Source: an uncultured Clostridia bacterium
GTDB taxonomy: Bacteria > Bacillota > Clostridia > TANB77 > CAG-465
Assembly: GCA_944386605.1 (NCBI GenBank)
Contig: CALXBS010000001.1
Coordinates: forward strand, 29,718 to 93,717
DNA length: 64,000 nt
Direction of reading: 5' to 3'
This document shows, one piece after another, positions 9,564 through 48,434 of this stretch. The notes below the pieces were generated by a model. The model was not told the origin of the DNA. It saw only the letters and a program-made list of their open reading frames with translations, and made no database searches. The position numbers and the translations under genes were made by a program. Positions within the stretch are counted from its first letter, which is position 1; every line of letters begins with the position of its first letter.

Positions 9564-9570
9564 AGAGGAA

Positions 9571-9605
9571 GGAGTATAATATCAAGTATATTATGCTCCT
9601 TTTCT
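9571..9605 (+). terminator. intrinsic terminator of ABC operon
   Basis: 12-bp stem GGAGTATAATAT/ATATTATGCTCC (one G-U pair), loop CAAGT, then TTTTCT. Confidence 0.7.
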
Positions 9606-9626
9606 GTATTTAATTTACATAAAATA

Positions 9627-9655
9627 TTGACAAAAACATGTTATCATGGTATAAT
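9627..9655 (+). promoter_or_regulatory. sigma-A promoter of adhesin 1
   Basis: TTGACA (9627-9632), 17 nt spacer, TGgTATAAT (9647-9655). About 140 nt of leader containing the hairpin GCTAAAAT...ATTTTAGC. Confidence 0.6.
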
Positions 9656-9795
9656 TAAAATAGATTTGTACGTTTATAGTGGCTAAAATTAAATTACTTA
9701 TTTGATTTTAGCTATATTTATGATATAATATTCTTGCATAAGTAAAATATAATATAATATTTTAATATATTTTAATATATTAGGGAGGTATTAAA

Positions 9796-12700
9796 ATGAA
9801 AGTATTAGAAAGATTAAAGGGAATAAAAAACATAAAAATGAAAGTAGTAACGATACTTATGCTAATCGTTTTAATGTCATTGCAATTAACACCTTTTACG
9901 TTGCTTGCAACCGCAACACAGTTGCAGTTTTATAGTCCAGGACTAATAACTCCTGCAACAGATGTAGCATATGGAAAAAACGTATTCTTTACTAATGCGA
10001 CTTTAGGTGGTGATACAGCATACTGTGTAGACTATGGTAGATCATTGCCTACAGGTACAATGACGTATTATAAGCAATTATCAGCACAAGGTGTGTCAAT
10101 TTTAGTATATGGTTATCCAAATACATCACCTGCAGAAATGGGATGTGCGTCAGCAGATGAAGCATATATGGCAACTCAGTTAGCGTTTTGGACAGTATTA
10201 CAAAAAACAGGTGAATCAGAAGGACCAAGAACATTTAATTTGGATAATATATATGCAAAACCAGGATATGAAGAATTTATGCAAAGAGCAGCTGCTGCAG
10301 CAAGAAGACTTAATGCAAGAGCACTAGCAGATCCATATATTCCAAATCCTGAGCTAAATGTAGATTCAAGTAGTGCAAAATTGGTAAATAGTAATGGTGA
10401 AATTATTACAGGACCATATGTACTAAATGTAACAGGTGGAACTGTGTCATCTATAAAAGTGTCTCTTTCAGGAGCACCAACATCAGCAAGAACAACTGAT
10501 GGAAATGGAAATAGTAAATCAACATTTTCAAATGGAGAAGCTGTATATGTAAGATTTAATCAAAATGAAACAGGATCAACCATGAGATTAAATGTAGAAG
10601 CAGATACAAACAAAGTAGTAGGAAGTATATATACATCAGGAAATAGTAGTGTACAAAACTTTGTAAAATTGGATACAGTACCTGTAGAATTATCAACATA
10701 TGTAGATATAAGATGGGGAACACAAACAGGAGCAATAGAAATATACAAAGTAGACCAAGACGATAATGAAGTAGAGGGAGTAACATTTGAATTAAGAAAT
10801 GAAGATGGAGAAACATTAGCAGAAGGAACAACAGGAAGTAACGGATATATAAAATTTTCAAATGTACAACCAGGAAGATATGAATTGGTAGAAGTAGATG
10901 CGCCATCAGAATATGAGATGAGAGAAGATCCAATAGAGGTAACAGTAGAAGCAAATCAAACAATCAGAAAAACAATCGAAAATAAAAGAAAAGAAGTAGA
11001 AGGATCATTAGAAATTAAAAAAGTAGATGAAGAAGGAAAAGCAATTCCAAATGTAACATTTGAGATATTAGATGAAGATAGAAACAAAATCGGAGAAATA
11101 ACAACAGATGAAAACGGAAGAGCCAAAATAAGTAACTTAGAAGTAGGAACATACTATTATAGGGAAATAAAAGCGCCAGTAAATGTAATAGTAGATAAAA
11201 CTGTAAAAGAATTTAAAATAACAAAAAGTAATAGAAATGTAGTAGAAGAAGTAGTAAATGAAAAAGTAAAAGGATCATTACAAATTATAAAAGTAGACGA
11301 ATCAAATGAACCAATAGCAGGAGTAAAATTTGATATACTAGACAGTAATAAGAAAGTAATAGAAACAATAACCACAAATGCAAGTGGAGTAGCAGTATCA
11401 AAAGATTTAACTCCAGGCACCTATTATTATAAAGAAGTAGAGGCTCCAAGTAATGTTACAATGGATACAAATGAGTATGAATTTAAAATAGAATCAACAG
11501 GTCAAATAATTACAAAAACAGTAGTTAATAAGGTGGCTAAAGGAAAATTAGAAATTCATAAAGTAGATAGTACAAATACTCCAATAGCAGGGGTAAAATT
11601 CAATATATTAGATAGCAATAAAAATGTAATTCAAACAATAACAACAAACGAAAATGGTATAGCTACTTCAAAAGACTTACCAATTGGAACCTATTACTAT
11701 AAAGAAGTAGAAGCACCAAGTAATGTTGTAATGGATACAAATGAATATGAATTTAGATTATCAAGTAATAATCAAGTATTAGCTAAAACAGTAGTAAACC
11801 AAGTAGCAAAAGGAAAATTAGAAATTCATAAAGTAGATAATACTAATAAACCAATAGCAGGAGTAAAATTTGATATATTAGATAGTAACAAAAATGTGAT
11901 AGAAACCATTGTCACAGATGAGAATGGTATAGCTACTTCAAAGGATTTAGCGCCAGGAACCTATTACTATAAAGAAGTAGAAGCACCAAGTAATGTTATC
12001 ATGGACACAAAAGAATATGAATTTAGAATTTCTGGTTCTAATCAAGTGGTTACAAAAACTGTAGTTAACCAAGTTGTAAATGGCAAATTAGAAATTCATA
12101 AAGTAGACAATACTAATAAACCAATAGCAGGTGTAAAATTTGATATCTTAGATAGCAATAAAAATGTAATTCAAACAATAACAACAAACGAAAATGGTAT
12201 AGCTACTTCAAAAGACTTACCACTTGGAACATACTATTACAAAGAAGTGGAAGCACCAAGTAATGTTATTATGGATACAAAAGAATATGAATTTAGAATT
12301 TCAAGTGCTAACCAAGTCATTACTAAAACAGTAGTTAACCAAATAGCAAATGGTAAATTAGAAATTCACAAAGTAGATAATACAAATGCTCCAATAGCCG
12401 GAGTAAAATTTGAAATTCTAGATAGCAATAAAAATGTAATAGAAACCATTGTTACAGATGAAAATGGTATAGCTACTTCAAAAGATTTACCACTTGGAAC
12501 ATATTATTACAGAGAAGTAGAAGCGCCAAGTAATGTCGTAATGGATACAAAAGAATATGAATTTAGAATTTCAAGTGCTAACCAAGTAATTACAAAAACA
12601 GTAGTTAACCAAATTATAAATGGTAGACTAGAAATTACTAAGGTAAATAATGAAAATGAACCAATTGAAGGTGTAAAATTTGAAATTTTAGATAGTAACA

Positions 12701-13566
12701 AAAATGTGATAGAAACCATTGTTACAGATGAAAATGGTAAAGCTACTTCAAAAGATTTACCAATTGGAACTTATTACTACAGAGAAGTAGAAGCTCCAGA
12801 TAATGTATATATGGATACAAAAGAATACAAATTTAAGATTACAGAAACAAATACTGTTATTGTAAAAACAGTGGTTAATAAATTAATAGAAGGAAGTTTA
12901 AAAATTATCAAAGTAGATGAAAATGATACTCCATTAAAAGGTGTAAAATTTGAAATCTTAGATAGTGATAAAAAAGTAGTAGATACGATTGTAACAGACA
13001 AAGATGGTATAGCTGTATCTAAAAAATTACCAATTGGAACATACTATTATAGAGAGGTAGAAGCACCTGATACAGTTGTTATGGATACTACAGAACATAA
13101 ATTTGTATTAAATGAAACAAATCAATTAATTGTAAAGAAAATTGTAAATAATCTTGCAACTGGAAAACTAGAGATTTTAAAACTTGATAAAGATAAAAAT
13201 ACTCCAATAGAGGGTGTAAAATTTGAAATTTATAATGAAAATGAGGAATTGGTAGATACTATTATAACAGATAAAGATGGTAAAGCAGTATCAAAAGATT
13301 TACCAATTGGAACTTACTTCTTTAAAGAAGTAGAAGCTCCAGATTCATATATTATGGATTCTAATACATATAAATTTAAGATTTCATCAGCAAATCAAAT
13401 CATTCATAAAACAGTGTATAACGAAAAAGAAAAACTTCCTGTAACAGGTGGTATGATTAGTACAGATGTTATGATTGTTATTGCAGTAGCTGTTTTAAGT
13501 ATACTTGGATATGTTGTGATGAATGCACTTTCAATAAAAAAGGAAAAAAATAATCAAAATATGTAA
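9796..13566 (+). CDS. LPXTG-anchored thioester-domain (TQXA) surface adhesin, 10 stalk domains
   Basis: Signal peptide ending LLATA. Cys77 in AYCVDYG (10024-10026) and Gln128 in ATQLAFW (10177-10179) form the thioester-domain signature. Then 10 units of about 90 aa (G.L.I.KVD...PI.GVKF.ILD...GTYYYKEVEAP...KTVVN) of SpaA-like/Cna-B isopeptide type. LPVTG (13435-13449), hydrophobic helix, KKEK tail. Confidence 0.9.
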   Translation: MKVLERLKGIKNIKMKVVTILMLIVLMSLQLTPFTLLATATQLQFYSPGLITPATDVAYGKNVFFTNATLGGDTAYCVDYGRSLPTGTMTYYKQLSAQGVSILVYGYPNTSPAEMGCASADEAYMATQLAFWTVLQKTGESEGPRTFNLDNIYAKPGYEEFMQRAAAAARRLNARALADPYIPNPELNVDSSSAKLVNSNGEIITGPYVLNVTGGTVSSIKVSLSGAPTSARTTDGNGNSKSTFSNGEAVYVRFNQNETGSTMRLNVEADTNKVVGSIYTSGNSSVQNFVKLDTVPVELSTYVDIRWGTQTGAIEIYKVDQDDNEVEGVTFELRNEDGETLAEGTTGSNGYIKFSNVQPGRYELVEVDAPSEYEMREDPIEVTVEANQTIRKTIENKRKEVEGSLEIKKVDEEGKAIPNVTFEILDEDRNKIGEITTDENGRAKISNLEVGTYYYREIKAPVNVIVDKTVKEFKITKSNRNVVEEVVNEKVKGSLQIIKVDESNEPIAGVKFDILDSNKKVIETITTNASGVAVSKDLTPGTYYYKEVEAPSNVTMDTNEYEFKIESTGQIITKTVVNKVAKGKLEIHKVDSTNTPIAGVKFNILDSNKNVIQTITTNENGIATSKDLPIGTYYYKEVEAPSNVVMDTNEYEFRLSSNNQVLAKTVVNQVAKGKLEIHKVDNTNKPIAGVKFDILDSNKNVIETIVTDENGIATSKDLAPGTYYYKEVEAPSNVIMDTKEYEFRISGSNQVVTKTVVNQVVNGKLEIHKVDNTNKPIAGVKFDILDSNKNVIQTITTNENGIATSKDLPLGTYYYKEVEAPSNVIMDTKEYEFRISSANQVITKTVVNQIANGKLEIHKVDNTNAPIAGVKFEILDSNKNVIETIVTDENGIATSKDLPLGTYYYREVEAPSNVVMDTKEYEFRISSANQVITKTVVNQIINGRLEITKVNNENEPIEGVKFEILDSNKNVIETIVTDENGKATSKDLPIGTYYYREVEAPDNVYMDTKEYKFKITETNTVIVKTVVNKLIEGSLKIIKVDENDTPLKGVKFEILDSDKKVVDTIVTDKDGIAVSKKLPIGTYYYREVEAPDTVVMDTTEHKFVLNETNQLIVKKIVNNLATGKLEILKLDKDKNTPIEGVKFEIYNENEELVDTIITDKDGKAVSKDLPIGTYFFKEVEAPDSYIMDSNTYKFKISSANQIIHKTVYNEKEKLPVTGGMISTDVMIVIAVAVLSILGYVVMNALSIKKEKNNQNM
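9870..11321 (+). repeat. 1,452-bp direct repeat, copy A (identical to 15202-16653)
   Basis: Offset is exactly 5,332 bp. Last upstream mismatch is at 9869, first downstream mismatch at 11322 (A versus G at 16654). Spot-checked line by line; the encoded proteins and the antisense shadow ORFs are identical. Near-identity continues to about 11600. Confidence 0.85.
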
Positions 13567-13580
13567 GAATTTACAATCTA

Positions 13581-13607
13581 GGGCATCCAGATAGGGTGTC
13601 CTTTTTT
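13581..13607 (+). terminator. weak intrinsic terminator after adhesin 1
   Basis: GGGCATCCagataGGGTGTCC (8-bp stem including two G-U pairs) followed by TTTTTT. It ends 14 nt before the sigma gene start. Confidence 0.6.
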
Positions 13608-13621
13608 ATGGGAGTTTGCAT

Positions 13622-14146
13622 ATGTTAGAAATGATAGAAAAAGCTAGAAAAGGGGATAAAGAGGCTTTTATTAATTTAATAAAGCTTGTAGAAAAAAAGC
13701 TATATGTGATTGCAAGATCACGCTTAAATAATGAAGAGGATATAAAAGACGCTGTTCAGGAAACTATATTTTTGTTATATAAAAATATTCCAAAATTAAA
13801 GGATATTCAAAAATTTAATGGGTATATGGCAAAAATTATGATAAATAGTTGTAATAAAATAGTGATAAAAAAAGGTAAACATATTTCTTATGATGTAGTT
13901 CAAAATGAAGAGTTTTTGATAGAAAAAGATAAATATGAAGATATTGATAAGAAACTAGATTTTTTTACAATTATTTCTTTTTTAGAAGTAGAAGAAAGAA
14001 CACTGATATCTATGTATTATTCCGATGATTATACGACAAAAGAAATTAGTAAAATATTAAAGATGAATGAAAGTACAATTAGGAGTAAAATAAAAAGAAT
14101 AAAAGAAAAGCTAAAACAAAGATATGGAGAGGAGGGAATAGAATGA
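13622..14146 (+). CDS. ECF-type sigma-70 family RNA polymerase sigma factor
   Basis: About 175 aa with regions 2 and 4 only: DAVQETIFLLYKNIPKL (region 2) and EERTLISMYYSDDYTTKEISKILKMNESTIRSKIKRIKEKL (region 4 HTH). ATG 13622 follows GGGAG; a TTG at 13616 is the alternative start. Confidence 0.85.
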   Translation: MLEMIEKARKGDKEAFINLIKLVEKKLYVIARSRLNNEEDIKDAVQETIFLLYKNIPKLKDIQKFNGYMAKIMINSCNKIVIKKGKHISYDVVQNEEFLIEKDKYEDIDKKLDFFTIISFLEVEERTLISMYYSDDYTTKEISKILKMNESTIRSKIKRIKEKLKQRYGEEGIE

Positions 14147-14955
14147 AACCTGAAGATAAACTAGATCAATGGATGAAAGAAAAGTACCAAGAAATGAAGA
14201 TTCCTTTAGATTTAGAAAAAGACTTTTTTGAAAAGTTAGAAAAGAAGGATGATAAGTCAAAGGTGCAATACTTAAAGTATGTAGCGATTATTCTGTTTAT
14301 TTGTGCAATCATAGCAACTACTGTAATTATTGTAAATATAGTAAAGAATCATGATAATCCAGAGGAATTAATAGCAGAAGAAAATGAAGAATATCAAGTT
14401 GCTTTAAAAATTGATCAAGCATGTTACGAAAAGATGGATGGATATAGCTATTTTGTATCTTCTTCAAGTATTGCGCAAGCAGTAGAATCAGCTGATATTA
14501 TTGCGATTGTAAAAATAGTGACGATAGAAGATATTCAAATGTATAGCGAAAATCTTGGAGAAACAAGAGGAAAGTTGTTAATGAATACGGTTCTAAAAGG
14601 GGACGCTATTCCCGGCGATATGATGGTATATAGAAATATAGGAAGCTATATTATTTTAAAAGAAGAATATAGAGATCGAATCATAACGGATATATCACAA
14701 GATATATATTCTCGTATGGAAAATCAAAGTCAGAATGATGTTGAACCAGGTAAAACATATCTAGCACATATACGCTTTGAGCATGGAGTTGGTACAACAG
14801 GATATGGAAAAGGAAGTCTTATGGAAATTTTAAATATCTCTCAACAAAATAAGATGAGTGTAGAAGAGTATGATTTAAATGAATTGATTTTCTATAATAA
14901 CGAATTACAACAAACACAGACAGTTCAAGAATATATAGAAGAATATTTAAAGTAA
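14143..14955 (+). CDS. putative anti-sigma factor, single-pass membrane protein
   Basis: ATGA start/stop overlap with the sigma gene. About 55-aa cytoplasmic N-terminus with no Cys or His (so not a ZAS type), one TM helix (YVAIILFICAIIATTVIIVNIV), and a roughly 200-aa extracytoplasmic domain of unrecognised family. Confidence 0.5.
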   Translation: MKPEDKLDQWMKEKYQEMKIPLDLEKDFFEKLEKKDDKSKVQYLKYVAIILFICAIIATTVIIVNIVKNHDNPEELIAEENEEYQVALKIDQACYEKMDGYSYFVSSSSIAQAVESADIIAIVKIVTIEDIQMYSENLGETRGKLLMNTVLKGDAIPGDMMVYRNIGSYIILKEEYRDRIITDISQDIYSRMENQSQNDVEPGKTYLAHIRFEHGVGTTGYGKGSLMEILNISQQNKMSVEEYDLNELIFYNNELQQTQTVQEYIEEYLK

Positions 14956-14979
14956 ACGTGCTTGCACGTTTCTTTTTTT
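14954..14979 (+). terminator. intrinsic terminator of sigma/anti-sigma unit
   Basis: AAACGTGCttGCACGTTT followed by CTTTTTTT. Confidence 0.8.
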
Positions 14980-15145
14980 ACTAAATAAAAAACCATTTTA
15001 ACTGAGAAAATACGTATATTCAGTTAAATGTAATAAAAATGAAATATATACATCACAAAATTGTAACAATTCATTGATTTTCTTAGAGAAATATGATAAA
15101 ATATATTATGTAATGTAGTAATAACGTGGTAACGGAGGTATTAAA

Positions 15146-18100
15146 ATGAAAGGAATAAAAAATATAAAAGTAAAGATAGCGAGTATATTTATGTTAATTG
15201 CTTTAATGTCATTGCAATTAACACCTTTTACGTTGCTTGCAACCGCAACACAGTTGCAGTTTTATAGTCCAGGACTAATAACTCCTGCAACAGATGTAGC
15301 ATATGGAAAAAACGTATTCTTTACTAATGCGACTTTAGGTGGTGATACAGCATACTGTGTAGACTATGGTAGATCATTGCCTACAGGTACAATGACGTAT
15401 TATAAGCAATTATCAGCACAAGGTGTGTCAATTTTAGTATATGGTTATCCAAATACATCACCTGCAGAAATGGGATGTGCGTCAGCAGATGAAGCATATA
15501 TGGCAACTCAGTTAGCGTTTTGGACAGTATTACAAAAAACAGGTGAATCAGAAGGACCAAGAACATTTAATTTGGATAATATATATGCAAAACCAGGATA
15601 TGAAGAATTTATGCAAAGAGCAGCTGCTGCAGCAAGAAGACTTAATGCAAGAGCACTAGCAGATCCATATATTCCAAATCCTGAGCTAAATGTAGATTCA
15701 AGTAGTGCAAAATTGGTAAATAGTAATGGTGAAATTATTACAGGACCATATGTACTAAATGTAACAGGTGGAACTGTGTCATCTATAAAAGTGTCTCTTT
15801 CAGGAGCACCAACATCAGCAAGAACAACTGATGGAAATGGAAATAGTAAATCAACATTTTCAAATGGAGAAGCTGTATATGTAAGATTTAATCAAAATGA
15901 AACAGGATCAACCATGAGATTAAATGTAGAAGCAGATACAAACAAAGTAGTAGGAAGTATATATACATCAGGAAATAGTAGTGTACAAAACTTTGTAAAA
16001 TTGGATACAGTACCTGTAGAATTATCAACATATGTAGATATAAGATGGGGAACACAAACAGGAGCAATAGAAATATACAAAGTAGACCAAGACGATAATG
16101 AAGTAGAGGGAGTAACATTTGAATTAAGAAATGAAGATGGAGAAACATTAGCAGAAGGAACAACAGGAAGTAACGGATATATAAAATTTTCAAATGTACA
16201 ACCAGGAAGATATGAATTGGTAGAAGTAGATGCGCCATCAGAATATGAGATGAGAGAAGATCCAATAGAGGTAACAGTAGAAGCAAATCAAACAATCAGA
16301 AAAACAATCGAAAATAAAAGAAAAGAAGTAGAAGGATCATTAGAAATTAAAAAAGTAGATGAAGAAGGAAAAGCAATTCCAAATGTAACATTTGAGATAT
16401 TAGATGAAGATAGAAACAAAATCGGAGAAATAACAACAGATGAAAACGGAAGAGCCAAAATAAGTAACTTAGAAGTAGGAACATACTATTATAGGGAAAT
16501 AAAAGCGCCAGTAAATGTAATAGTAGATAAAACTGTAAAAGAATTTAAAATAACAAAAAGTAATAGAAATGTAGTAGAAGAAGTAGTAAATGAAAAAGTA
16601 AAAGGATCATTACAAATTATAAAAGTAGACGAATCAAATGAACCAATAGCAGGGGTAAAATTCGATATACTAGACAGTAATAAGAAAGTAATAGAAACAA
16701 TAACCACAAATGCAAGTGGAGTGGCGGTATCAAAAGATTTACCAATTGGAACCTATTATTACAAAGAAGTAGAGGCTCCAAGTAATGTTGTAATGGATAC
16801 AAATGAGTATGAATTTAAAATAGAATCAACAGGTCAAATAATTACAAAAACAGTAGTAAACAAAGTGGCCAAAGGAAAATTAGAAATTCATAAAGTAGAT
16901 AATACAAATACTCCAATAGCAGGTGTAAAATTTAATATACTAGATAGTAATAAAAATGTAGTAGATACGATTGTTACAAATGCAAGTGGAGTAGCGGTAT
17001 CAAAAGATTTACCAATTGGAACCTATTACTATAAGGAAGTAGAAGCTCCAAGTAATGTTGTAATGGATACTAACGAATATGAATTTAAATTAACAAGTAA
17101 TGAACAAGTATTGGTAAAAACAGTAATCAATGATTTACAAAAAGGTTCTATTCAAATTTTTAAAATAGATAGTGAAAGAACTCCAATTCCTGGTGTTACT
17201 TTTCAAATATTAGATAGTAATAAAAATGTAATAGATACAATTATTACTGATGAAAATGGTAAGGCTTCTTCTAAAGAGTTAGAGCCAGGAACTTATTATT
17301 ACAAAGAGTTTAAAGCACCAGCAAATGTTGTTTTAGATGATCAAGAATATGAATTTAGAATTAGTGGAACAACAATTGTTGAAAAAACAGTGGTTAATCA
17401 AATTGCTAAGGGAAAAATAAAAATTGTAAAAGTAGATAATACTAGTACCCCAATAGCAGGAGTAAAATTTGATATCTTAGATAGCAATAAAAACGTAGTA
17501 GATACGATTGTTACAGATGAAAATGGTATTGCAATATCTGATAATTTAAAATTAGGAACTTATTATTACAAAGAAGTAGAAGCTCCAAGTGATGTGATTA
17601 TGGATACTAATGAATATACATTTAAGCTTTCTTATAACACGCAAGTAATCGAGAAAAGAGTAATCAACCAAAAAGTAAAAGGAGCTATTGAAATATATAA
17701 ATATGATGAAAATGCTACTCCAATAGCTGGAGTAAAATTTGATATCTTAGATAGTAACAAAAAGGTAGTAGATACGATTGTTACTGATGAAAATGGTAAA
17801 GCAGTTTCTAGTATGTTAGAAGTTGGAACTTATTATTATAAAGAAGTAGAAGCTCCAAGTAATGTTATTATGGATTCTACAGAACATGCTTTTATCATAA
17901 CAGAAACAAATGTTGTGGTGAAAAAGACAGTTGTTAACCAACTTGCAAAAGGAAATTTAAAAATAATTAAGGTAGATGAAAATGCAACTCCAATAGCCGG
18001 AGTAACATTTGAAATATTAGATAGTAATAAAACAGTAGTAGATACTATTATTACAGATGAAAATGGTATAGCTACTTCAAAAGATTTACCACTTGGAACC

Positions 18101-20236: not shown

Positions 20237-20257
20237 AGTATGAATACTTAATAGAAA

Positions 20258-20295
20258 GGAAAGAATAGTAAAAAAAGCTATTCTTTCTTTTTTTG
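20258..20295 (+). terminator. intrinsic terminator after adhesin 2
   Basis: GGAAAGAATAGtaaaaaaagCTATTCTTTCT followed by TTTTTT. Confidence 0.8.
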
Positions 20296-20431
20296 TGGAA
20301 TTTAGTCGTATTTTGTTTTCTTTTTCCTATTTTTATGTAAAAAGATTTTATCAAAATAACATAATAATGTAATAAAATGAAAATATACAATTCTAAAAGT
20401 ATATCAATTTACATAATAATAAAAAATGTGG

Positions 20432-20460
20432 TTGTATTAGGAAAAATATGATGTTAGAAT
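20432..20460 (+). promoter_or_regulatory. candidate sigma-A promoter of adhesin 3
   Basis: TTGTAT (20432-20437), 17 nt spacer, TAGAAT (20455-20460). Confidence 0.4.
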
Positions 20461-20490
20461 TCAAGTATAATATTTGTATAGGAGGAACAA

Positions 20491-23400
20491 ATGAATAGGG
20501 AGCATAAAGGATTTTTTTCTAAGCTTTATAACCAAATTATTGGAATAAAGCATTTAAAACTAAAAATTGTCTCAATATTTCTAATTTTTATGTTGCTCAC
20601 ATTGCAATTATCCCCTTTTATGCTACAAGCTACTGCAACACAGTTGCAATATTACTCACCTGGTCTTGTGACACCTGCTACCGATGTATATTACCAAAAA
20701 AATGTATTTTTTAGTAATTCCACATTGGGAGGTGAAACTGCATATTGTGTAGACTATGGTAGATCTTTACCAAGTGGCACAATGACCTATTACAAGCAGT
20801 TATCCGCACAAGGTGTATCTATTCTTGTGTATGGTTATCCAAATACATCGCCTGCTGAAATGGGATGTGCTTCAGCAGATGAAGCATATATGGCAACACA
20901 ACTTGCCTTTTGGACAGTTTTACAAAAAACTGGTGAATCAGAAGGTCCAAGAGTATTTGATTTGGATAATATATATGCAAAACCAGGCTATGAGGAGTTT
21001 ATGCAAAGAGCAGCTGCAGCAGCAAGGAGGCTAAATGCAAGAGCAATTGCAGATCCATATATTCCAAGCCCTGAGTTAAATGTAGATACTACGCAAGCCA
21101 AGTTTGTTAATCAAAATGGTAATATTGTAACAGGTCCATACATTTTAAATGTAACTGGTGGTACAGTATCTTCCATTAAGGCTTCACTTTCTGGCGCTCC
21201 AAGTTCTGCTAAAATTATAGATGGAAATGGAAATGAAAAATCAACATTTTCAAATGGAGAAGCAGTATATGTTTCTATTAATGAAAATGAGCAAGGTTCA
21301 ACCATGACATTAAATGTTTTTGCAGATACAAATAAAGTGACAGGTAGCATTTATACATCAGGAAATGATAGTGTTCAAAACTTTGTAAAATTAGATACCA
21401 TTCCAGTGGAATTATCTACTTATGTGGATATTAAGTGGGGAACACAAACAGGAGCGGTCGAAGTTTACAAAGTGGATCAAAATGAAGATCCAGTTGCAGG
21501 CGCAACTTTTGAATTAAGAAATGGAAATGGAGAAACATTAGCAGAAGGAACAACAGGTAGTAACGGATATATTAAGTTTTCAAATGTAACAGTAGGACAA
21601 TATGAATTGGTTGAAACAGAAGTACCTTCTGGATATATTGGTTCAGATGAGTCTATTATTTTTAATGTAACTGCAGGTAACACTTATTCTGTTACAGTAG
21701 AAAATGAGAAAATATCTGGGTCTTTACAAATAAAAAAGAAGGATACAGATAATAATCCAATACCAAATGTTACTTTTGAAATATTAGATGAGGATAGAGA
21801 CAAAATTACAGAAGTAACCACCAATGAAGAAGGAATAGCAAGAGTCAATAACTTAGCAAATGGTACCTATTATTTTAGAGAAATAAAAGTACCTGTTAAT
21901 GTTATTATGGATTCTTCTTTACATGAGTTTAATATTACTAGAGCAGATCAAGTGGTTACAAGAGAAATTACAAATGAGCTAATTACAGGTGGAATAAAGA
22001 TTGTAAAAACAGATGAAAATAAGCTTCCTATAGAAGGTGTAAAATTTCAATTACTAAATTCTGCTAAACAAGTTGTTACGACTGCGACAACAAATTCAAG
22101 TGGTATTGCAGTGTTTAATAATCTTTCTGTTGGAACCTATTATTATCAAGAAATAGAAGTACCAGAAGGATATGTTATAGATAATACAGAACATGTATTT
22201 TCTATTACCAATACACAACAATTACTAACAGAAAATGTTGTTAATCAAGTCATGAAAGCAAAATTAAGAATTGTTAAGAAAACAAATGATGATACTCCTA
22301 TTGCAAATGTAAAATTTGAAATCTTAAATGAAGATAAACAGGTATTAGAAACGATTACTACAAATGAATCAGGAATTGCAGAAACTTCTAGCTTACCAGT
22401 TGGAACGTATTACTACAAAGAAGTGGAAGCTCCAAATTATGTTATTATGGATACGAACGAATATAAATTTAAGCTTTCAAATAATGATCAAATAATAGAA
22501 AAAATAATTGTTAATGAATTAGCTAAGGCAAAATTAAAAATCATCAAAAAATCCAATGAAAACACGCCAATTGGTGGAGTAAAATTTGAGATTTTAGATC
22601 AGAATAAACAGGTACTGGAAACCATTACTACAAATGAAGAAGGAATAGCAGAAACTTCTAATTTATCAGTCGGCACTTATTATTATAAAGAGGTGGAAGC
22701 ACCTGGATATGTAGTAATGGATAGTGAAGAACATGAAGTGAGACTTTCTAGTAATAATCAGATAGTAGAAAGAACTGTTATTAATGAGTTAATAAAAGCA
22801 AAATTAAAAATTACGAAGAAAAATAATTTAGGTGAAGTAATTTCAGGAGTTAAGTTTGAAATTTTAGATGAAAATAAAAATGTGGTTGAAACGATTACCA
22901 CAAATGAATCAGGAATAGCAGAAACTTCTAGTTTACCAGTTGGTAAGTATTATTACAAAGAAGTAGCAGCTCCTGACAATGTTATCATGGATACAAATGA
23001 GTATGTATTTCAACTTTCAACTAATAACCAGGTATTAGAAAAAACGGTTATTAATAATTTGGTAAAAGAACGATTAAAAATTATCAAAGTAGATGAAAAT
23101 AATAAACCAATTGCTAATGCCAAATTTCAAATTTTAAATTCCGATAAATCGGTTATAGAAGAAATCGTTACAAATCAAGAAGGAATTGCTTTATCTAGTG
23201 AATTAAGTGCAGGTGTTACTTATTATTATAAAGAGATAGAAGTGCCATATGGTTATACATTAGATAGCACTGAAAAAGCTTTTAGAGTAACAGAAAATTC
23301 TGGAGTGATTGTTAAAAGAGCGGTTAATAATATTCAAACAGGGGAATTAGAAATTATAAAGAAGGATAATAATCAAAATCCAATAGAAGGTGTAGAATTC

Positions 23401-26400
23401 CAGATTTTAGATGCTAATAAAAATGTAATAGAAACCATTACGACAAATAGCGAAGGAATAGCTACTTCACAAGAGTTAATGCTTGGAACATATTATTATC
23501 AAGAAATAAGCGCCCCTAATGATTTGAAAATAGATGAAACACTTTATGCTTTCAGCATTTCAGAAGATAATCAAGTTGTTACAAGAACGGTAATTAATGA
23601 GTTAATTACAGGAAAATTAGAAATTGTAAAAGTAGATGAAAATAAATTACCAATTGCAAATGTCACTTTTGCAATTAAAGATGAGAATAAAACAACAATT
23701 CAGACTATAACAACAGATGAAAACGGAATTGCTTTATCGGATCCTCTATCAAAAGGAAAATATTATTATCAAGAAATAGAAACGGCAGATGGTTATGTTT
23801 TAGATGATAAAGAGTATGTATTTGTTATTGACGGTGAAAATGAAATCATTCAAAAAAAGGTGATTAATCAATTTGTACGTGGAAATCTTAGAATTGAAAA
23901 ATTAGATACTGCAGGTAAGCCACTATCTGGTGTTCAATTTGAAATTTTAAATGAAAACAAAGAAGTGGTAGAAACACTAACAACTAATAGTGAGGGAATT
24001 GCAATTAGTAATCCTTTATTAAAAGGAAAATACTATTACAGAGAATCAAAAGTACCAGATGGACTACAAATAGATACAACAGAGCATATATTTGTAATTT
24101 CTGAAAATGACCAAATCATTCAAAAAAGAGTGATTAATGAATATTTAGAAAAAGGAACATTAGAAATCTATAAAGTAGATGAAAATAGTATTCCAATTGA
24201 AAATGTTACTTTCCAAATTTTAGATGGTCAAAAAAATATAGTAGAAGAAATTACAACGAACGCAGAAGGAAAAGCAACATCTAGTGATCTTAAGATAGGC
24301 ACTTATTATTATAAGGAAATATCGGCACCAGATGAGTATGTAATGGATACAACAGAACATAAATTTGTATTATCGGAAGATAATCAAGTAGTTTATAAAA
24401 CAGTTATTAATACCCATGAAAAAGGAAGCTTAAAGATCATTAAAGTAGATGAAAATGATGTGCCTTTACAAGGAATTGTATTCCATATCTTAAATAGTAA
24501 TCAAGAGGTAATTCAAACGATTACAACAAATGAAGCTGGTATAGCCGTATCTAATGAATTACAAAAAGGAAATTATTATTATCAAGAAGTAGAAGTTCCA
24601 GAAAATATTTTAATTGATCGAACTATTTATCCTTTTGAAGTATCTGAAAATAACCAAATTGTGATTAAAAATATGGTAAATGAGTATCTTAAGGGGAATT
24701 TAAAAATCATCAAAACTGATGAGAATAACAAGCCTCTTGCAGGAGTAAAATTCCATATTTTAGATAGTAACAAAACAGTAATTGATACGATTATTACAAA
24801 TGAGGAAGGTATTGCAACTAAAGATAGTCTTTTAATTGGAACCTATTATTATCAGGAAATAGAAGCTCCAGAGCACGTGATCATAGATTCGAATCAGTAT
24901 GAATTTAGTATTACAGCTCAAAATCTAGTGGTAGAAAAAAGTATAGTAAATAAATATGAAAAATCAAGTTTAAAAATTATTAAGGTAGACGAGGAAAATC
25001 ATCCAATTGCAAATGTAACCTTTGCAATATTAGATGAAAATAAACAAAAGATAAATGAAATTGTTACAAATGAAGAAGGAATTGCCATTTTAGAAAATAT
25101 GTCACTTGGAACCTATTATTATCAAGAGTTAAGTGTTCCAAATGAATATGTAAAAGATGAGACAATTTATGAATTTAGAATATCAGAGTATGGTCAAACA
25201 ATTACTAAAACAGTGGTAAATAAACTTGCAACAGGAAGATTAAGAATTCAAAAAGTAGATGAAAACAATATCCCACTTGCAGGTGTTAAGTTTGATATAT
25301 TGGATCATAAACAAAATTATGTAGAGACCATAGTAACTGATGAAAACGGAATTGCTTTGTCAGACTTTTTAGAATTAGGAAAATATTATTATCAAGAAAC
25401 AGAAGCTCCCGAACATGTAATTATTGATGATAAAATTTATGAATTTTCAATTACTCAAAATAATGAAATTGTCATTAAAAATATGACAAACTTTTACAAA
25501 AAGTCAAGTTTAAAAATAATAAAAGTGGACGAAAACAATCATCCAATTGCAAATGTAACCTTTGCAATATTAGATGAAAATAAACAAAAGATAAATGAAA
25601 TTATAACAAATGAAGAAGGAATTGCTATATTAGAAAATATGTCACTTGGAACTTACTATTATCAGGAATTAAGTGTTCCAAATGGATATGTAAAAGATGA
25701 TACAATTTATGAATTTAGAATATCAGAATATGAGCAAATGATTACTAAAACAGTGGTAAATCAATTCGCAAGAGGAAGTTTAAAAGTTATCAAGGTAGAT
25801 GAGAATAGTGTACCACTTGCTGGAATCAAATTTAACATATTAGATAGCAATCAAAAATATATTCAAACAATTGTAACGGACGAAAATGGAATTGCACAGA
25901 CTTCTAATTTAACACTAGGAACTTATTATTATCAAGAAGTAGAAGCACCTGAATACGTCATTATGGATAATACAATTTATGAATTTACCATTAGTGAAAA
26001 TAATGAGGTAGTCATTAAAAATATTGTAAATCATTATGAGAAATCTACCTTTACCATTATCAAAGTAGATGAAAATGAAATACCTTTACAAGGAATTACA
26101 TTTGATATATTAGATAATAATAAGAATGTAATTGATACAATAGTAACTGATGAAAATGGCGTTGCTAAATCAAAAGAACTTTCATTAGGCACATATTATT
26201 ATCAAGAAACTAAAGTGCCAGATGGTCTTGTATTAGATAATCATCTTTATGAATTTGAAGTAACAGGCTATGGTCAGAATGTTATTAAAAATATGGTCAA
26301 TTACTATGTTAGAGGAAAGTTTCAAATTATTAAAAGAGGATTGGACGGAAAAGTTTTAGCGGGTGCAAGATTTAATATTTTAGATGAAAATCAAAATATC

Positions 26401-27585
26401 ATTGATACAATTCAAACAGGTGAAAATGGAATCGCCATTTCAGATGATTTGATTTATGGAAAATATTATTATCAAGAAATAGAAGCACCAGTTGATTACG
26501 AGTTAGATGATACGTTATATTCATTTGAAATTACACGAAATGATGAGATCATTATAAGAGAAATAGAAAATGAATATATTTATGGGAAATTAAAAATTAC
26601 TAAATTGGATAAAGAATCTTCAAAACCAATAGAAGGAGTAAAATTTAATATATTGGATCAAGATAAAAATATCATCACAACGATTACAACTGATCAAGAG
26701 GGAATAGCAGTAATGGAAAGATTGGTAAAAGGAACATACTTTTATCAGGAAATAGAAGCCCCAGAAGGTTATGTAATCGATGAAAAAGTATACCAATTTA
26801 GAATTAGTGAAAACAATCAGTTAATTAATAAAGTGATTACAAATGAAAAAATATTGGGTGGACTAAAGATAACAAAATTAGATAAAAAATCAGAAGCACC
26901 AATTCAAGGTGTAAAATACCAGATTTTAGATCAAAATAAAAATGTGATAACAACTATCACAACAGATGAAAATGGTATAGCAACAATTGATGGCTTAGAA
27001 AAAGGAAAGTATTATTATCAAGAAATAGAGGCACCTGAAGGATATATCATAGACGATAAGATTTATCAGTTTAATATTTCAAAAAATGAGCAAATTATTA
27101 ATAAGATAATGATCAATGAGCAGGTTTATGGTGCATTAAAAATTATTAAAACAGATAAGGATACAAGAGAAACAATAGAAGGTGTTGAATTTAAAATATT
27201 AAATAGTAATAGAGAAGAAGTGGGAACTTATGTAACAGACCAAGAGGGAATTATAGAAGTTGAAAACTTACCATATGGAACCTATTATTATAAAGAAATG
27301 AAAACGCCAGAAAATTATTATGTAGATAATGAGGAATATAGTTTTGATATAGAAAAAGATGAGCAAGTTATTGTTAAAAAGATAACAAATGAAAGAGAAA
27401 AACTACCGGTAACAGGTGGTATCATTAGTACTAATATTTTAATTATTGTAGCGGTAAGTATTGTTTCAATAATTGGATATGTTCTATTTAATGTACTAAG
27501 AGACAAAAAAACGGCAGATCCTTTTAAATTTAAAAGTGACGATTTTGTAGATGATGAATCTAATGATAAAAATAAGGATAGGTAA
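20491..27585 (+). CDS. LPXTG-anchored thioester-domain (TQXA) surface adhesin, 22 stalk domains
   Basis: 2364 aa. N-terminal domain is highly similar, but not identical, to adhesins 1 and 2 (AYCVDYGRSLPSG, ATQLAFWTV). 22 SpaA-like units counted by the G.YYY[KQR]E motif. LPVTG at 27403-27417, TM helix, then an unusually long charged tail (RDKKTADPFKFKSDDFVDDESNDKNKDR). Confidence 0.9.
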   Translation: MNREHKGFFSKLYNQIIGIKHLKLKIVSIFLIFMLLTLQLSPFMLQATATQLQYYSPGLVTPATDVYYQKNVFFSNSTLGGETAYCVDYGRSLPSGTMTYYKQLSAQGVSILVYGYPNTSPAEMGCASADEAYMATQLAFWTVLQKTGESEGPRVFDLDNIYAKPGYEEFMQRAAAAARRLNARAIADPYIPSPELNVDTTQAKFVNQNGNIVTGPYILNVTGGTVSSIKASLSGAPSSAKIIDGNGNEKSTFSNGEAVYVSINENEQGSTMTLNVFADTNKVTGSIYTSGNDSVQNFVKLDTIPVELSTYVDIKWGTQTGAVEVYKVDQNEDPVAGATFELRNGNGETLAEGTTGSNGYIKFSNVTVGQYELVETEVPSGYIGSDESIIFNVTAGNTYSVTVENEKISGSLQIKKKDTDNNPIPNVTFEILDEDRDKITEVTTNEEGIARVNNLANGTYYFREIKVPVNVIMDSSLHEFNITRADQVVTREITNELITGGIKIVKTDENKLPIEGVKFQLLNSAKQVVTTATTNSSGIAVFNNLSVGTYYYQEIEVPEGYVIDNTEHVFSITNTQQLLTENVVNQVMKAKLRIVKKTNDDTPIANVKFEILNEDKQVLETITTNESGIAETSSLPVGTYYYKEVEAPNYVIMDTNEYKFKLSNNDQIIEKIIVNELAKAKLKIIKKSNENTPIGGVKFEILDQNKQVLETITTNEEGIAETSNLSVGTYYYKEVEAPGYVVMDSEEHEVRLSSNNQIVERTVINELIKAKLKITKKNNLGEVISGVKFEILDENKNVVETITTNESGIAETSSLPVGKYYYKEVAAPDNVIMDTNEYVFQLSTNNQVLEKTVINNLVKERLKIIKVDENNKPIANAKFQILNSDKSVIEEIVTNQEGIALSSELSAGVTYYYKEIEVPYGYTLDSTEKAFRVTENSGVIVKRAVNNIQTGELEIIKKDNNQNPIEGVEFQILDANKNVIETITTNSEGIATSQELMLGTYYYQEISAPNDLKIDETLYAFSISEDNQVVTRTVINELITGKLEIVKVDENKLPIANVTFAIKDENKTTIQTITTDENGIALSDPLSKGKYYYQEIETADGYVLDDKEYVFVIDGENEIIQKKVINQFVRGNLRIEKLDTAGKPLSGVQFEILNENKEVVETLTTNSEGIAISNPLLKGKYYYRESKVPDGLQIDTTEHIFVISENDQIIQKRVINEYLEKGTLEIYKVDENSIPIENVTFQILDGQKNIVEEITTNAEGKATSSDLKIGTYYYKEISAPDEYVMDTTEHKFVLSEDNQVVYKTVINTHEKGSLKIIKVDENDVPLQGIVFHILNSNQEVIQTITTNEAGIAVSNELQKGNYYYQEVEVPENILIDRTIYPFEVSENNQIVIKNMVNEYLKGNLKIIKTDENNKPLAGVKFHILDSNKTVIDTIITNEEGIATKDSLLIGTYYYQEIEAPEHVIIDSNQYEFSITAQNLVVEKSIVNKYEKSSLKIIKVDEENHPIANVTFAILDENKQKINEIVTNEEGIAILENMSLGTYYYQELSVPNEYVKDETIYEFRISEYGQTITKTVVNKLATGRLRIQKVDENNIPLAGVKFDILDHKQNYVETIVTDENGIALSDFLELGKYYYQETEAPEHVIIDDKIYEFSITQNNEIVIKNMTNFYKKSSLKIIKVDENNHPIANVTFAILDENKQKINEIITNEEGIAILENMSLGTYYYQELSVPNGYVKDDTIYEFRISEYEQMITKTVVNQFARGSLKVIKVDENSVPLAGIKFNILDSNQKYIQTIVTDENGIAQTSNLTLGTYYYQEVEAPEYVIMDNTIYEFTISENNEVVIKNIVNHYEKSTFTIIKVDENEIPLQGITFDILDNNKNVIDTIVTDENGVAKSKELSLGTYYYQETKVPDGLVLDNHLYEFEVTGYGQNVIKNMVNYYVRGKFQIIKRGLDGKVLAGARFNILDENQNIIDTIQTGENGIAISDDLIYGKYYYQEIEAPVDYELDDTLYSFEITRNDEIIIREIENEYIYGKLKITKLDKESSKPIEGVKFNILDQDKNIITTITTDQEGIAVMERLVKGTYFYQEIEAPEGYVIDEKVYQFRISENNQLINKVITNEKILGGLKITKLDKKSEAPIQGVKYQILDQNKNVITTITTDENGIATIDGLEKGKYYYQEIEAPEGYIIDDKIYQFNISKNEQIINKIMINEQVYGALKIIKTDKDTRETIEGVEFKILNSNREEVGTYVTDQEGIIEVENLPYGTYYYKEMKTPENYYVDNEEYSFDIEKDEQVIVKKITNEREKLPVTGGIISTNILIIVAVSIVSIIGYVLFNVLRDKKTADPFKFKSDDFVDDESNDKNKDR
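24961..25770 (+). repeat. two-domain (540-bp period) internal duplication in adhesin 3
   Basis: 24961-25230 and 25501-25770 are near-identical (KSSLKIIKVDE.NHPIANVTFAILDENKQKINEI.TNEEGIAILENMSLGTYYYQELSVPN.YVKD.TIYEFRISEY). The intervening and following domains are also each other's closest relatives. Confidence 0.8.
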
Positions 27586-27603
27586 AATTTTACCTATCTT
27601 TTT
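27577..27603 (+). terminator. intrinsic terminator after adhesin 3
   Basis: GATAGGTAAAattTTTACCTATC followed by TTTTT; overlaps the stop codon. Confidence 0.8.
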
Positions 27604-27638
27604 CTTGACATAAATGTTATAATAAAGTAGGGAGTATT

Positions 27639-28622
27639 ATGACAGAAATTATTGATTTAAAAAACATAGAAAAATGTATAGAAGCAATGAAAAAGGGTGA
27701 TCCTATTATCATACCAACAGAAACGGTTTATGGAATAGGAGCACTTGCTTTTGACGTTCAGTCTGTTGAAAAAGTTTATGAGTTAAAAAAACGTGATAAA
27801 AAGAAATCATTAATTGTTTTAGTAGATTCGGTGGAAATGTTAAATAGAATTGTAAAGAAAGTTACATATGTGGAAGAAAAGCTAATAAAGGCATTCTGGC
27901 CTGGTCCATTAACGATCATCTTTGAAAGCAATGGATCACTACCCTCTAATGTAACAGGCGGAAAAGATACTATAGCAGTAAGAATTCCAGATAACGCAAT
28001 TGATTTAGAATTGATTCATAGATTAAATCAACCAATTACGGCACCAAGTGCAAATATATCAGGCAAGTTAAGTATTACAGAAGCAATGACTGCTTATCAA
28101 GAATTTAATGGAAAGGTTCCGTATATTCTTGATGGTGGAAAATCAAGTATTGGTTTAGAGTCAACAATTGTAAAAGTAAAAAAGGATATTGTTTCTGTGC
28201 TACGTATAGGAAAAATTCTTCCTGAGGATATAGAAAAATTAGGTTTAAAGGTAGAAATTATAAAAGACAAGATGGAAAAAAAGACACATTATCAAATGGA
28301 TAAAAAAGTTATTTTAATTAGTGGAACTCTAGAAGAACAATATCATAAAATGAAAGAATATATAGAAAATGATAAAAATGAAACAATTGATATAATTGGT
28401 TTTAAAGAAAATCATATACTATTAAGGGAATCTGTTCATCAATATATGGATGTTGGATATGTGGAAGAAGTGGAAAATTTTTCTAAAAATTTATTTCAAA
28501 TGTTATATACATGTGATAAAAGTAAAGCGGATACAATATTGATAGAATTGCCTGAAGAAAAAGGATTTGGTGGAATTGTTATCGATAAATTAAAAGAAGT
28601 AACAAACCATGATATATTATAA
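27639..28622 (+). CDS. tsaC: L-threonylcarbamoyladenylate synthase (Sua5/YwlC type)
   Basis: YrdC-domain motifs PTETVYGIGA, KKRDKKKSLIVLV and PSANISG, plus a C-terminal Sua5 domain; 327 aa. Confidence 0.85.
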   Translation: MTEIIDLKNIEKCIEAMKKGDPIIIPTETVYGIGALAFDVQSVEKVYELKKRDKKKSLIVLVDSVEMLNRIVKKVTYVEEKLIKAFWPGPLTIIFESNGSLPSNVTGGKDTIAVRIPDNAIDLELIHRLNQPITAPSANISGKLSITEAMTAYQEFNGKVPYILDGGKSSIGLESTIVKVKKDIVSVLRIGKILPEDIEKLGLKVEIIKDKMEKKTHYQMDKKVILISGTLEEQYHKMKEYIENDKNETIDIIGFKENHILLRESVHQYMDVGYVEEVENFSKNLFQMLYTCDKSKADTILIELPEEKGFGGIVIDKLKEVTNHDIL

Positions 28623-41656: not shown

Positions 41657-41664
41657 GAGGAAAC

Positions 41665-47669: not shown

Positions 47670-48434
47670 ATGGCCAGAGATAATAAAAAAATAATTATAG
47701 TAATTGTATTAATTGTCGTTATTGCAATTATAGGTTTAGTAGCTTTTATCATCAACAATATTATTAATGAACAACAACATGAGTTAGATGAACCAGGACA
47801 AGAGTTAGGATATGATATTCCAGTTGGAAATTTGGATGCAGAAGTAAAAGATTCAATTGCCTTAGGAAGAGATTTACAAAGTGAAATTAGTGCTGTAAAT
47901 GCTACTTATCAAGACGCAAAAGCATGGTTAAAAGTACCAGGCACTACGATTGATACACCTATATTTCAATCAACAGATAATGATCGATATTATAGAAATG
48001 ATAGAGATAATGAAAAGACAAAATGGGGAGAACCATATTTAGATTATAGATGTAGCCTTGCAAGTATTGGAAGACCATCTAATATCATTATATATGGTCA
48101 TAATACAGAAACGGATACACATTTTACGCCATTATTAAATTACAAGAAACAAGAATTTTATAACGAACATCAAATTATTGAGTTAGCTACTCCAGAAGGT
48201 TGTTATAAATTTAAAGTATTTTCTGCTTATGTAACCGATACATCTTTTTTCTATTTAGATACTAATTTTGCAAATACAAATGAATATACAACATTTTTAA
48301 ATAGTATCAAACAAAAGAGTAGATATGATATGGGAGTAAGTGTTGATTCTTCTGATACCATTTTAACTTTATCTACATGTGATTATTCTATTAAAGACGG
48401 AAGATTTGTAGTACATGCAAAACTTGTACAATAA
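47670..48434 (+). CDS. srtB: class B sortase
   Basis: N-terminal TM anchor; WLKVPGTTIDTPIFQSTDNDRYYRND, IIYGHN (His), LSTC (Cys), GRFVVHAKL (Arg). Confidence 0.85.
   Translation: MARDNKKIIIVIVLIVVIAIIGLVAFIINNIINEQQHELDEPGQELGYDIPVGNLDAEVKDSIALGRDLQSEISAVNATYQDAKAWLKVPGTTIDTPIFQSTDNDRYYRNDRDNEKTKWGEPYLDYRCSLASIGRPSNIIIYGHNTETDTHFTPLLNYKKQEFYNEHQIIELATPEGCYKFKVFSAYVTDTSFFYLDTNFANTNEYTTFLNSIKQKSRYDMGVSVDSSDTILTLSTCDYSIKDGRFVVHAKLVQ

Follow-up and report, generated by a model that had tools for sequence, protein, structure and literature searches.

Proteins that combine a thioester domain (TED) with isopeptide or ester domains and an LPxTG wall anchor were defined in 2015 as TIE (thioester, isopeptide, ester) proteins, and the class II fold of the TED was described in 2018. 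Here three genes of this kind, A, B and C, are described from a window of 64,000 nucleotides (nt) of an uncultured Clostridia bacterium (NCBI GenBank assembly GCA_944386605.1, contig CALXBS010000001.1, positions 29,718 to 93,717 of the forward strand); all coordinates given below are those of the window. The analysis followed a sequence-only reading of the same stretch, which had taken the three genes for thioester adhesins that carry one reactive head on stalks of different length. A, B and C very probably encode monomeric, cell-wall-anchored TIE fibrillar adhesins of an uncultured low-GC gut Clostridia bacterium.

The closest described system is BaTIE of Bacillus anthracis, the full-length structure of which (pdb 6FWV) is among the three on which class II of the TED was founded (PMC6194298). 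Its thioester joins Cys71 to Gln266, and an isopeptide bond between Lys475 and Asn555, with Glu524 as the catalytic residue, was observed in the crystal (PMC6194298). In class II, the slipknot class, a β-sandwich of ~75 residues lies between helix α3 and strand P, and a long P/Q hairpin returns to the upper lobe of the domain (PMC6194298). The stalk of EfmTIE86 consists of 5 isopeptide domains, and that of SaTIE of 4 together with 2 ester domains (PMC6194298). The streptococcal protein SfbI binds the Aα chain of fibrinogen covalently through its thioester (PMC4450167), and TIEpLS20 is needed for conjugation in liquid culture (PMC8092201). More generally the TED is listed among the adhesive domains of fibrillar adhesins, and metagenome protein sets contain tens of thousands of TED-headed examples (PMC9210967). 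Fibrillar adhesins typically have stalks made of tandem isopeptide domains (PMC12617251).

Thioester domains of the three heads

The heads of A, B and C match the Pfam TED family (PF08341) with 36.1, 35.3 and 35.0 bits, respectively (cutoff 22), and their closest relative in the PDB by sequence is 6FWV (E 1.8e-14). An AlphaFold2 model of residues 39–315 of A, built on 23 sequences, has a mean predicted local distance difference test score (pLDDT) of 91.5. At E ≤ 0.001 Foldseek matches this model only to chains of 6FWV, 6FWY (EfmTIE86) and 6FX6 (SaTIE), with E values down to 2e-17 (9.6e-6 for SaTIE) and TMq values of 0.78 for 6FWV and 0.77–0.81 for 6FWY. The class I TED of Cpa, in comparison, gives just E 0.011 and TMq 0.35. 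The model consists of an N-terminal β/three-helix lobe followed by an all-β region (residues 148–269), and two strands of ~20 residues (223–242 and 251–269) flank the Gln that is discussed below; these elements match the β-sandwich insert and the long P/Q hairpin of class II. On this predicted fold the heads of all three proteins are class II TEDs, and the view that they are thioester domains, already taken in the sequence-only reading, is upheld by profile, nearest PDB relative and fold alike.

The bond-forming Gln of a TED sits in a separate, weak C-terminal hydrophobic-Q-polar motif, and the Gln and Trp of the TQxx(hydrophobic)W motif adjoin the thioester while being dispensable for its formation (PMC6194298; PMC4450167). 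All three motifs are found in A, B and C. The Cys motif ([YFL]C-hydrophobic-hydrophilic) occurs as A-Y-C-V-D within AYCVDYG, the helix motif as TQLAFW within ATQLAFW (Gln128 and Trp132 in A), and the Gln motif of strand Q (hydrophobic-Q-polar-hydrophobic-hydrophobic) as V-Q-N-F-V. In the HMMER alignment Cys77 of A pairs with Cys71 of BaTIE, and Gln287 (SVQNF) with Gln266. None of these residues (the Cys, the TQ, the Trp and the partner Gln) varies when 14 relatives from other genomes are aligned. The predicted thioester pairs are Cys77–Gln287 in A, Cys71–Gln281 in B and Cys86–Gln296 in C.

The earlier choice of Gln128, in the TQLA motif, as the partner of Cys77 was wrong, as it is Gln287 that aligns with Gln266 of BaTIE. 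Apposition of Cys77 and Gln128 in a predicted structure, which had been proposed as a check, would probably be a pass for the wrong reason, because the TQ Gln hydrogen-bonds to the Cys backbone. For any mutagenesis the practical gain is this corrected pair, Cys77–Gln287 and not Cys77–Gln128.

Stalk domains

Pfam finds the SpaA domain (PF17802) 10 times in A, 14 times in B and 22 times in C (E 3e-207 to 0), together with one Cna_B domain (PF05738, 77.5 bits) in B. A hidden Markov model (HMM) made from the gene A units recovers 10, 15 and 22 contiguous units of ~90 residues, 47 in total, exactly the counts first proposed. A single unit matches the three isopeptide domains of BaTIE (E 1.8e-25), and the catalytic triad aligns with that structure residue for residue: the Lys of I.KVD corresponds to Lys475, the first Glu of YYYKEVEAP to Glu524 and the Asn of TVVN to Asn555. 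The Lys is present in all 47 units and the Glu in 46, while the residue of the last strand is Asn in 45 and Asp in the other two (B10 and B11). The single Glu exception is B12, the classic Cna_B unit, for which no acid could be assigned from this alignment. By this correspondence, which agrees with the isopeptide units of the sequence-only reading, the stalks are CnaB/SpaA isopeptide-type domains.

The units of B are ordered as 9 SpaA, 2 divergent SpaA with Asp in place of Asn (residues 1113–1291), 1 classic Cna_B (1292–1385) and 3 SpaA. The three-domain insert (18488–19015 and 19019–19300) is unique to this gene. Its two divergent CnaB units are 91% identical and end in ...VVMKDD, from which Lys–Asp bonds are predicted. 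A Lys–Asp isopeptide bond occurs in FbaB CnaB2/SpyCatcher.

Organization of the locus and wall anchoring

The three open reading frames (1256, 1696 and 2364 amino acids, aa) lie on the + strand and take up ~16 kb (Table 1); their sizes are exactly those first reported. Each protein has a basic, then hydrophobic signal peptide that ends in ...LLATA/TQ, the head motifs AYCVDYG and ATQLAFW, and a sorting signal formed by LPVTG, ~23 hydrophobic residues making up the transmembrane helix, and a K/R-rich basic tail, so that every one of these elements in the sequence-only reading was found in A, B and C. The charged tail that follows the transmembrane helix is longer in C than in A and B. The genes had been called consecutive; they are neighbours, although a sigma factor gene and a membrane protein gene separate A from B. 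The window has a GC content of ~29%, and the flanks hold polC, an HD-domain gene, an ABC-2 transporter, Sua5, adk, map and ribosomal protein genes. The locus is a chromosomal one of low-GC uncultured gut Clostridia.

The sole sortase gene of the window encodes a class B enzyme and lies ~20 kb downstream of the locus, with no class A sortase gene found in the 64 kb. The class B enzyme is a possible candidate for the anchoring of the LPVTG proteins.

Table 1. Positions of the features of the adhesin locus and of the sortase gene in the window.
Feature	Position	Strand	Description
Gene A	9796..13566	+	1256 aa; from open reading frame and domain search
Gene A, parts of the protein			Signal peptide ~1–40; predicted class II TED ~41–310; ten SpaA/CnaB units 311–1212; LPVTG at 1214
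Gene B	15146..20236	+	1696 aa; predicted class II TED identical to that of A; 15 stalk units; LPVTG at 1659
Gene C	20491..27585	+	2364 aa; predicted class II TED; 22 SpaA units 320–2303; LPVTG at 2305
A/B identical tract	A 9870..11321 = B 15202–16653	+	1452 nt, 100% identical
Predicted thioester Cys codons	A Cys77 10024..10026; B Cys71 15356–15358; C Cys86 20746–20748	+	From BaTIE alignment
Predicted thioester Gln codons	A Gln287 10654..10656; B Gln281 15986–15988; C Gln296 21376–21378	+	From BaTIE alignment
Predicted gene A promoter	9627..9655	+	TTGACA, 17 nt, TATAAT, with TG; 12/12 consensus; pattern match
Terminator-like hairpin with T-run	13580..13602	+	After gene A, directly upstream of the sigma gene
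Extracytoplasmic function (ECF)-type sigma-70 family factor gene	13616..14146 (or 13622–14146)	+	Between A and B; open reading frame starts at TTG 13616, ATG 13622 likelier (174 aa, as in other assemblies)
Gene for 270-aa single-pass membrane protein	14143..14955	+	Between A and B; overlaps the sigma stop by 4 nt
Class B sortase gene	47670..48434	+	TIGR03064, 170 bits (cutoff 153.75)

Proposed mechanism

The three proteins would be exported by the Sec pathway and, by homology, the signal peptide would be removed after ...LLATA. The class II TED would then form its internal Cys–Gln thioester by itself (Cys77–Gln287 in A), with the TQLAFW helix packed on the bond. Each of the 10, 15 or 22 stalk domains would likewise form its own Lys–Asn isopeptide bond, or Lys–Asp bond in two units, with the Glu of YYYKE as catalyst, and the cross-linked stalk would be a protease-resistant, unstretchable rod. 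A sortase would cut between the Thr and the Gly of LPVTG and link this rod to the peptidoglycan. At the tip a target nucleophile, probably a Lys amine, would attack the thioester to give an intermolecular isopeptide bond. The ligand may come from the host, mucus, the diet or another microbe. As the reactive upper lobe of the TED hardly differs among A, B and C, their ligand is probably a shared one.

Relations among the three genes and their recurrence

The identical tract of A and B takes in the greater part of the signal peptide, the entire TED, the first two stalk units and the beginning of unit 3. Beyond it the identity declines gradually, from 99% through 93%, 88%, 86% and 68% to background, and the regions upstream of the two genes are unrelated except for the ribosome-binding site (RBS). 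Between A and C the protein identity is 86% over the TED (93% in its upper lobe) and 48–59% in the first stalk units. Synonymous divergence (dS) is 0.7–1.0 across the TED, and nonsynonymous divergence (dN) rises from 0.04 in the upper lobe and the Gln hairpin to 0.18 in the β-sandwich and 0.33–0.48 in the first stalk units. Judged by these values C is an old paralogue, and its low dN in the head at such dS indicates that strong purifying selection acts on the reactive head, whereas the stalks diverge. The near-identical N-terminal domains of the sequence-only reading are seen in both comparisons, as an exact tract in A and B and as a conserved head in A and C, and the selection on the head supports its view of one and the same warhead.

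Stalk units 1 and 2 are orthologous across A, B and C (58% identity) and differ from the remaining units. The middle units were amplified gene by gene, as is shown by the identities of A4–A7 (82–91%), C14/C16 (90%) and B10/B11 (91%), and the units of C have a mean identity of 44% among themselves. The family would have arisen by tandem duplication, with shifts in stalk length through unequal recombination among the 270-nt repeats, and the head module of A and B would be kept identical by recent duplication or by gene conversion.

The locus, in the order A, sigma gene, putative anti-sigma gene, B and C, was found in at least 8 metagenome samples; it recurs in independent assemblies and is not a one-off product of assembly. 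One contig (L033), with the 1696-aa form of B, shows 3 mismatches to the window over 20,112 positions. Another (L019) has the same flanks, sigma genes and C, and a B of 1606 aa that has one unit less (residues 521–610 absent), giving B alleles of 15 or 14 units. The C protein is identical in at least 5 contigs of other samples. L019 also carries 23 single-nucleotide polymorphisms (SNPs); all fall in nt 151–1296 of gene A and are repeated in B.

Between strains (L019, L033 and L037) the A/B head tract is the sole polymorphic part, where 23 SNPs, of which 12 cluster in 150 nt, change 6 amino acids; outside it the identity is 99.9–100% across ~25 kb. A third allele of the head tract is carried by L037. 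Polymorphism limited in this way suggests recombinational exchange of head alleles between strains.

In many metagenome-assembled genomes (MAGs) of uncultured Clostridia from mouse, rabbit, sheep and human gut, TED adhesin genes occupy the site between the ABC transporter and Sua5-adk. Two TED genes are usual at this site, with two or three in related species. The closest species (TED identity 70–77%) have giant TED adhesins of 1817 and 2193 aa and a further SpaA-repeat adhesin upstream. In a second species, MGBC120553, there are three TED gene starts, and two contigs (L017 and L018) converge to identity shortly before their ends, which suggests that the pattern seen in L019 occurs there too. 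The earlier description of three such genes in a row as unusual does not hold, as fibrillar adhesins with a TED and isopeptide domains are abundant (PMC9210967) and related species hold two or three TED genes at the same site.

Stalk length

Scaled from BaTIE, in which the TED and 3 domains measure 20 nm, stalk length would come to about 50 nm in A, 70 nm in B and 95 nm in C. The display of one warhead at three distances from the wall, as first put forward, is plausible but speculative. A serious alternative, to which we give somewhat less than an even chance, is that the different lengths carry no separate function. A, B and C would then be redundant, fast-evolving copies whose unit number drifts by unequal recombination, perhaps under pressure from host immunoglobulin A (IgA), and their copy number would serve dosage or antigenic variety and not graded reach. 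Both explanations give the proteins the same identity and differ on why there are three. Drift would account for the two alleles of B, which differ by exactly one 90-aa unit with breakpoints in a 38-aa stretch common to units 3 and 4, and for the recent amplification within A (A4–A7) and C (C14/C16). It also fits the stalk-bearing proteins of 990, 1817 and 2193 aa at the same site in related species, and the polymorphism of the TED tract among strains, mainly at synonymous sites. Against it, A (1256 aa) and C (2364 aa) are constant in length across independent samples, and the units of C are old and divergent, which argues for a long array that has been maintained and not recently inflated.

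A wider form of the length-graded reading is that, across a clade of gut Clostridia, ongoing gene conversion keeps tandem head modules identical, strains swap head alleles and stalk lengths diversify, so that one warhead is shown at ~50, 70 and 95 nm. This is tentative and on present evidence unlikely. If true, it would give graded reach, for example through the cell's own surface layers or through mucus, and the pattern seems to recur in MGBC120553 (two shared heads and a diverged third).

Assembly of the repeats

The parallel SNPs of L019 reflect either concerted evolution of the head module or repeat collapse in graph assembly. An assembly artefact could lie behind the 100% identity of A and B, the parallel SNPs between strains and the count of 15 against 14 units, since a de Bruijn graph assembler runs a shared tract as one edge that is traversed twice, with small differences between the copies merged. 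The contigs compared are SPAdes-style metagenome contigs of ~6× coverage, many assemblies end at the tract edges, and A equals B within both strains while 23 inter-strain SNPs appear in both copies, which is exactly what a collapsed edge predicts. The breaks have a second meaning, however: several assemblies end exactly at the edges of the tract, so the A/B repeat is real and, in several samples, identical at least at the k-mer level. Independent samples reproduce both the gene order and the lengths of 1256, 1696 and 2364 aa, and L033 has just 3 differences from the window in 20 kb. The stepwise decay of identity beyond the tract, from 99% to 68%, resembles the boundary of a conversion tract, and the second species behaves alike, with L017 and L018 turning identical just before their ends. 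An artefact behind these details is regarded as unlikely.

Adhesion partners and assignment

Among class II TED adhesins, TIEpLS20 is the only one for which the TED literature consulted shows a role by experiment, and the same literature gives no defined receptor for any class II TED. Contact between bacteria, in aggregation, biofilm or mating pairs, could on this precedent be the role of A, B and C in place of host binding, as a class II TED adhesin has a demonstrated part in conjugation (PMC8092201). The setting speaks against this: the locus is chromosomal, among the housekeeping genes polC, ABC transporter, Sua5, adk, map and ribosomal protein genes, its synteny is kept across species, no conjugation genes lie nearby, and A, B and C carry LPVTG, whereas TIEpLS20 is described as not sortase-anchored. 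A role in contact between bacteria is regarded as quite improbable.

That the proteins are pilin subunits, polymerized into covalent pili by a pilus-specific sortase, is barely credible in spite of a match to NF033902 of NCBIfam (SpaH/EbpB major pilin; 113–188 bits, cutoff 95), since this match spans only profile positions 378–540, the last CnaB domain and the anchor, there is no YPKN-type ([WYF]P[KR]) motif in A, B or C, no class C sortase is found in or near the locus (the one sortase of the window being class B and 20 kb away), and 1256–2364 aa with a terminal adhesive domain suits monomeric fibrillar adhesins, as which A, B and C are therefore regarded.

Several points weigh against the assignment of A, B and C as wall-anchored TIE adhesins. 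The NCBIfam model TQXA_dom (TIGR03934), the name under which the heads had first been placed, scores 25.7–26.5 bits in the three proteins and stays under its cutoff of 30.4, while the Pfam models TED, SpaA and Cna_B are all significant. That the thioester and the isopeptide bonds form is deduced from residue conservation and from homology. Assemblies, which can collapse repeats or count them wrongly, are the source of both the unit numbers and the 100% identity of A and B. Class B sortases of characterized clostridia prefer SPxTG or NVQTG over LPxTG. Finally, about a quarter of the TED relatives (~45 of ~170) have Ser in place of the thioester Cys (AYSID or AYSLD for AYCVD), and the TED fold is therefore not always thioester-bearing. 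Unlike these relatives A, B and C all retain the Cys.

The Ser variants (P0010, P0011, P0013–P0017, P0019–P0025 and others; locus L004:13096–14475) are mostly short, with 410–470 aa, a TED-like domain and one SpaA domain. At least 23 retain TQxxxW and the partner Gln, and another group combines the Ser with a Lys at the Gln position. In syntenic loci one Ser-variant gene lies downstream of a Cys-type adhesin gene, and the example in L004 has an N-terminal transmembrane segment and is without LPXTG. These proteins could form a Ser–Gln oxoester or lack such a bond altogether. Nothing relevant on Ser-variant TEDs, or on an oxoester with a thioester domain, came up in a literature search.

A word-indexed homologue search with one TED gave 2 matches and a 14-sequence profile 25, and an exhaustive search with this head reached 184 cluster representatives at E ≤ 1e-3. 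With only that number of representatives the head is therefore a modest subfamily inside a large known family.

Promoters and the sigma factor between A and B

Pattern matching predicts for each of the three genes a sigma-A-like promoter of its own, with an extended –10 element, and a terminator-like hairpin of its own. The promoter of A is located past the terminator of the upstream ABC-transporter operon (9567–9603), and its first position, 9627, is also that of the stretch described in the sequence-only reading. The gene that follows A encodes a sigma factor of the ECF type (Pfam Sigma70_r2, r4 and r4_2; TIGR02937 70.1 bits, cutoff 42.9). The 270-residue membrane protein gives no significant match to a Pfam or NCBIfam family, and from the gene arrangement alone it is a putative anti-sigma factor.

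This pair had been taken for the regulator of the adhesins. No shared ECF-type promoter was found upstream of A, B and C, the shared k-mers being the RBS-start region of A and B and short AT-rich words. The pair is conserved in strains of this species and absent from 18 syntenic loci of related species. In other species the slot between tandem adhesin genes holds other genes, for example an alpha/beta hydrolase in L001, and the nearest homologues of the sigma factor (≤34% identity) have no TED or stalk genes nearby. Given the sigma-A-like promoters and the absent linkage, the notion that the adhesins have their own regulator is therefore unsupported, though conceivable.

The sigma gene (region 13530–13622) starts ~15 nt past the hairpin and no promoter is evident in the gap; the gene may be expressed by read-through from A or from a promoter inside the 3′ end of A. 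An Rfam scan of 9300–27800 at E ≤ 1, which takes in the long 5′ leaders, gave no riboswitch or known RNA. An invertible promoter switch was considered and rejected, as the three upstream regions show weak AT-rich inverted repeats only.

Other genes in the window

About 10 kb downstream of the locus a tyrosine recombinase of the phage-integrase family (37514–38374, 286 aa) is conserved at its site in other samples, so it is probably Xer-like and not part of a mobile element. A protein of the metallo-beta-lactamase fold (30204–30902) gives a sub-threshold match to Anti-Pycsar Apyc1 (32.8 bits, cutoff 50); it lies amid housekeeping genes and is conserved in related contigs. A small alkylation-repair cluster (40803–41348, 41644–42198 and 42198–42764) is made up of two tandem O6-methylguanine-DNA methyltransferase genes and, after them, a 3-methyladenine glycosylase gene. 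An unusual fusion of three domains, FGE-sulfatase (formylglycine-generating-enzyme-like), flavodoxin_4 and cyclophilin-like, is encoded at 44880–46694.

Comparison with known systems

Thioester adhesion has so far been studied almost only in pathogens (Streptococcus, Bacillus anthracis, Staphylococcus, Enterococcus). The present locus points to uncultured gut commensal Clostridia that devote ~16 kb at a conserved chromosomal site to thioester chemistry and very long cross-linked stalks. A literature search for studies of TED-adhesin paralogues or of stalk length returned nothing relevant. A, B and C offer well-defined constructs for finding the ligand of a class II TED, and a natural series, with the same head on 10, 15 and 22 domains, for asking if stalk length matters in adhesion.

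BaTIE (BasC/BA5258; LPATG-anchored) is the best sequence match for both head and stalk unit and the best fold match, and its thioester and isopeptide residues align with those of A, B and C. It shares with them the order of signal peptide, class II TED, CnaB-type isopeptide domains and LPxTG (PMC6194298). The head identity is ~20% in structural alignment, and BaTIE has 3 stalk domains against 10–22. It is also a single gene in Bacillus, in contrast to three tandem paralogues in a gut Clostridia commensal. EfmTIE86 (Enterococcus faecium) and SaTIE (Staphylococcus aureus) have the same class II fold as predicted for the heads described here, including the inserted β-sandwich and the long P/Q hairpin that bears the Gln, with 12–18% identity and shorter stalks.

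SfbI, Cpa and FbaB of Streptococcus pyogenes have the chemistry predicted for A, B and C, in which a Cys–Gln thioester and a target Lys give a covalent bond (PMC4450167). They are class I TEDs, however, without the β-sandwich insert and with an extra α0 helix, and have a known ligand and different stalks or repeats, whereas A, B and C are of the predicted class II. TIEpLS20 (p34), from the Bacillus subtilis plasmid pLS20, is like A, B and C in having a class II TED followed by Cna-type domains (PMC8092201). It differs in being plasmid-borne within a conjugation operon and in being described as having no sortase anchor, while A, B and C are chromosomal and carry LPVTG.

The three proteins add a large example to the already known TIE family and no new mechanism. 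With fibrillar adhesins at large they share the adhesive tip, the tandem stalk and the wall anchor, and they differ from them in nothing categorical (PMC9210967; PMC12617251); what sets them apart is the length of their stalks and the presence of the same head in three linked genes.

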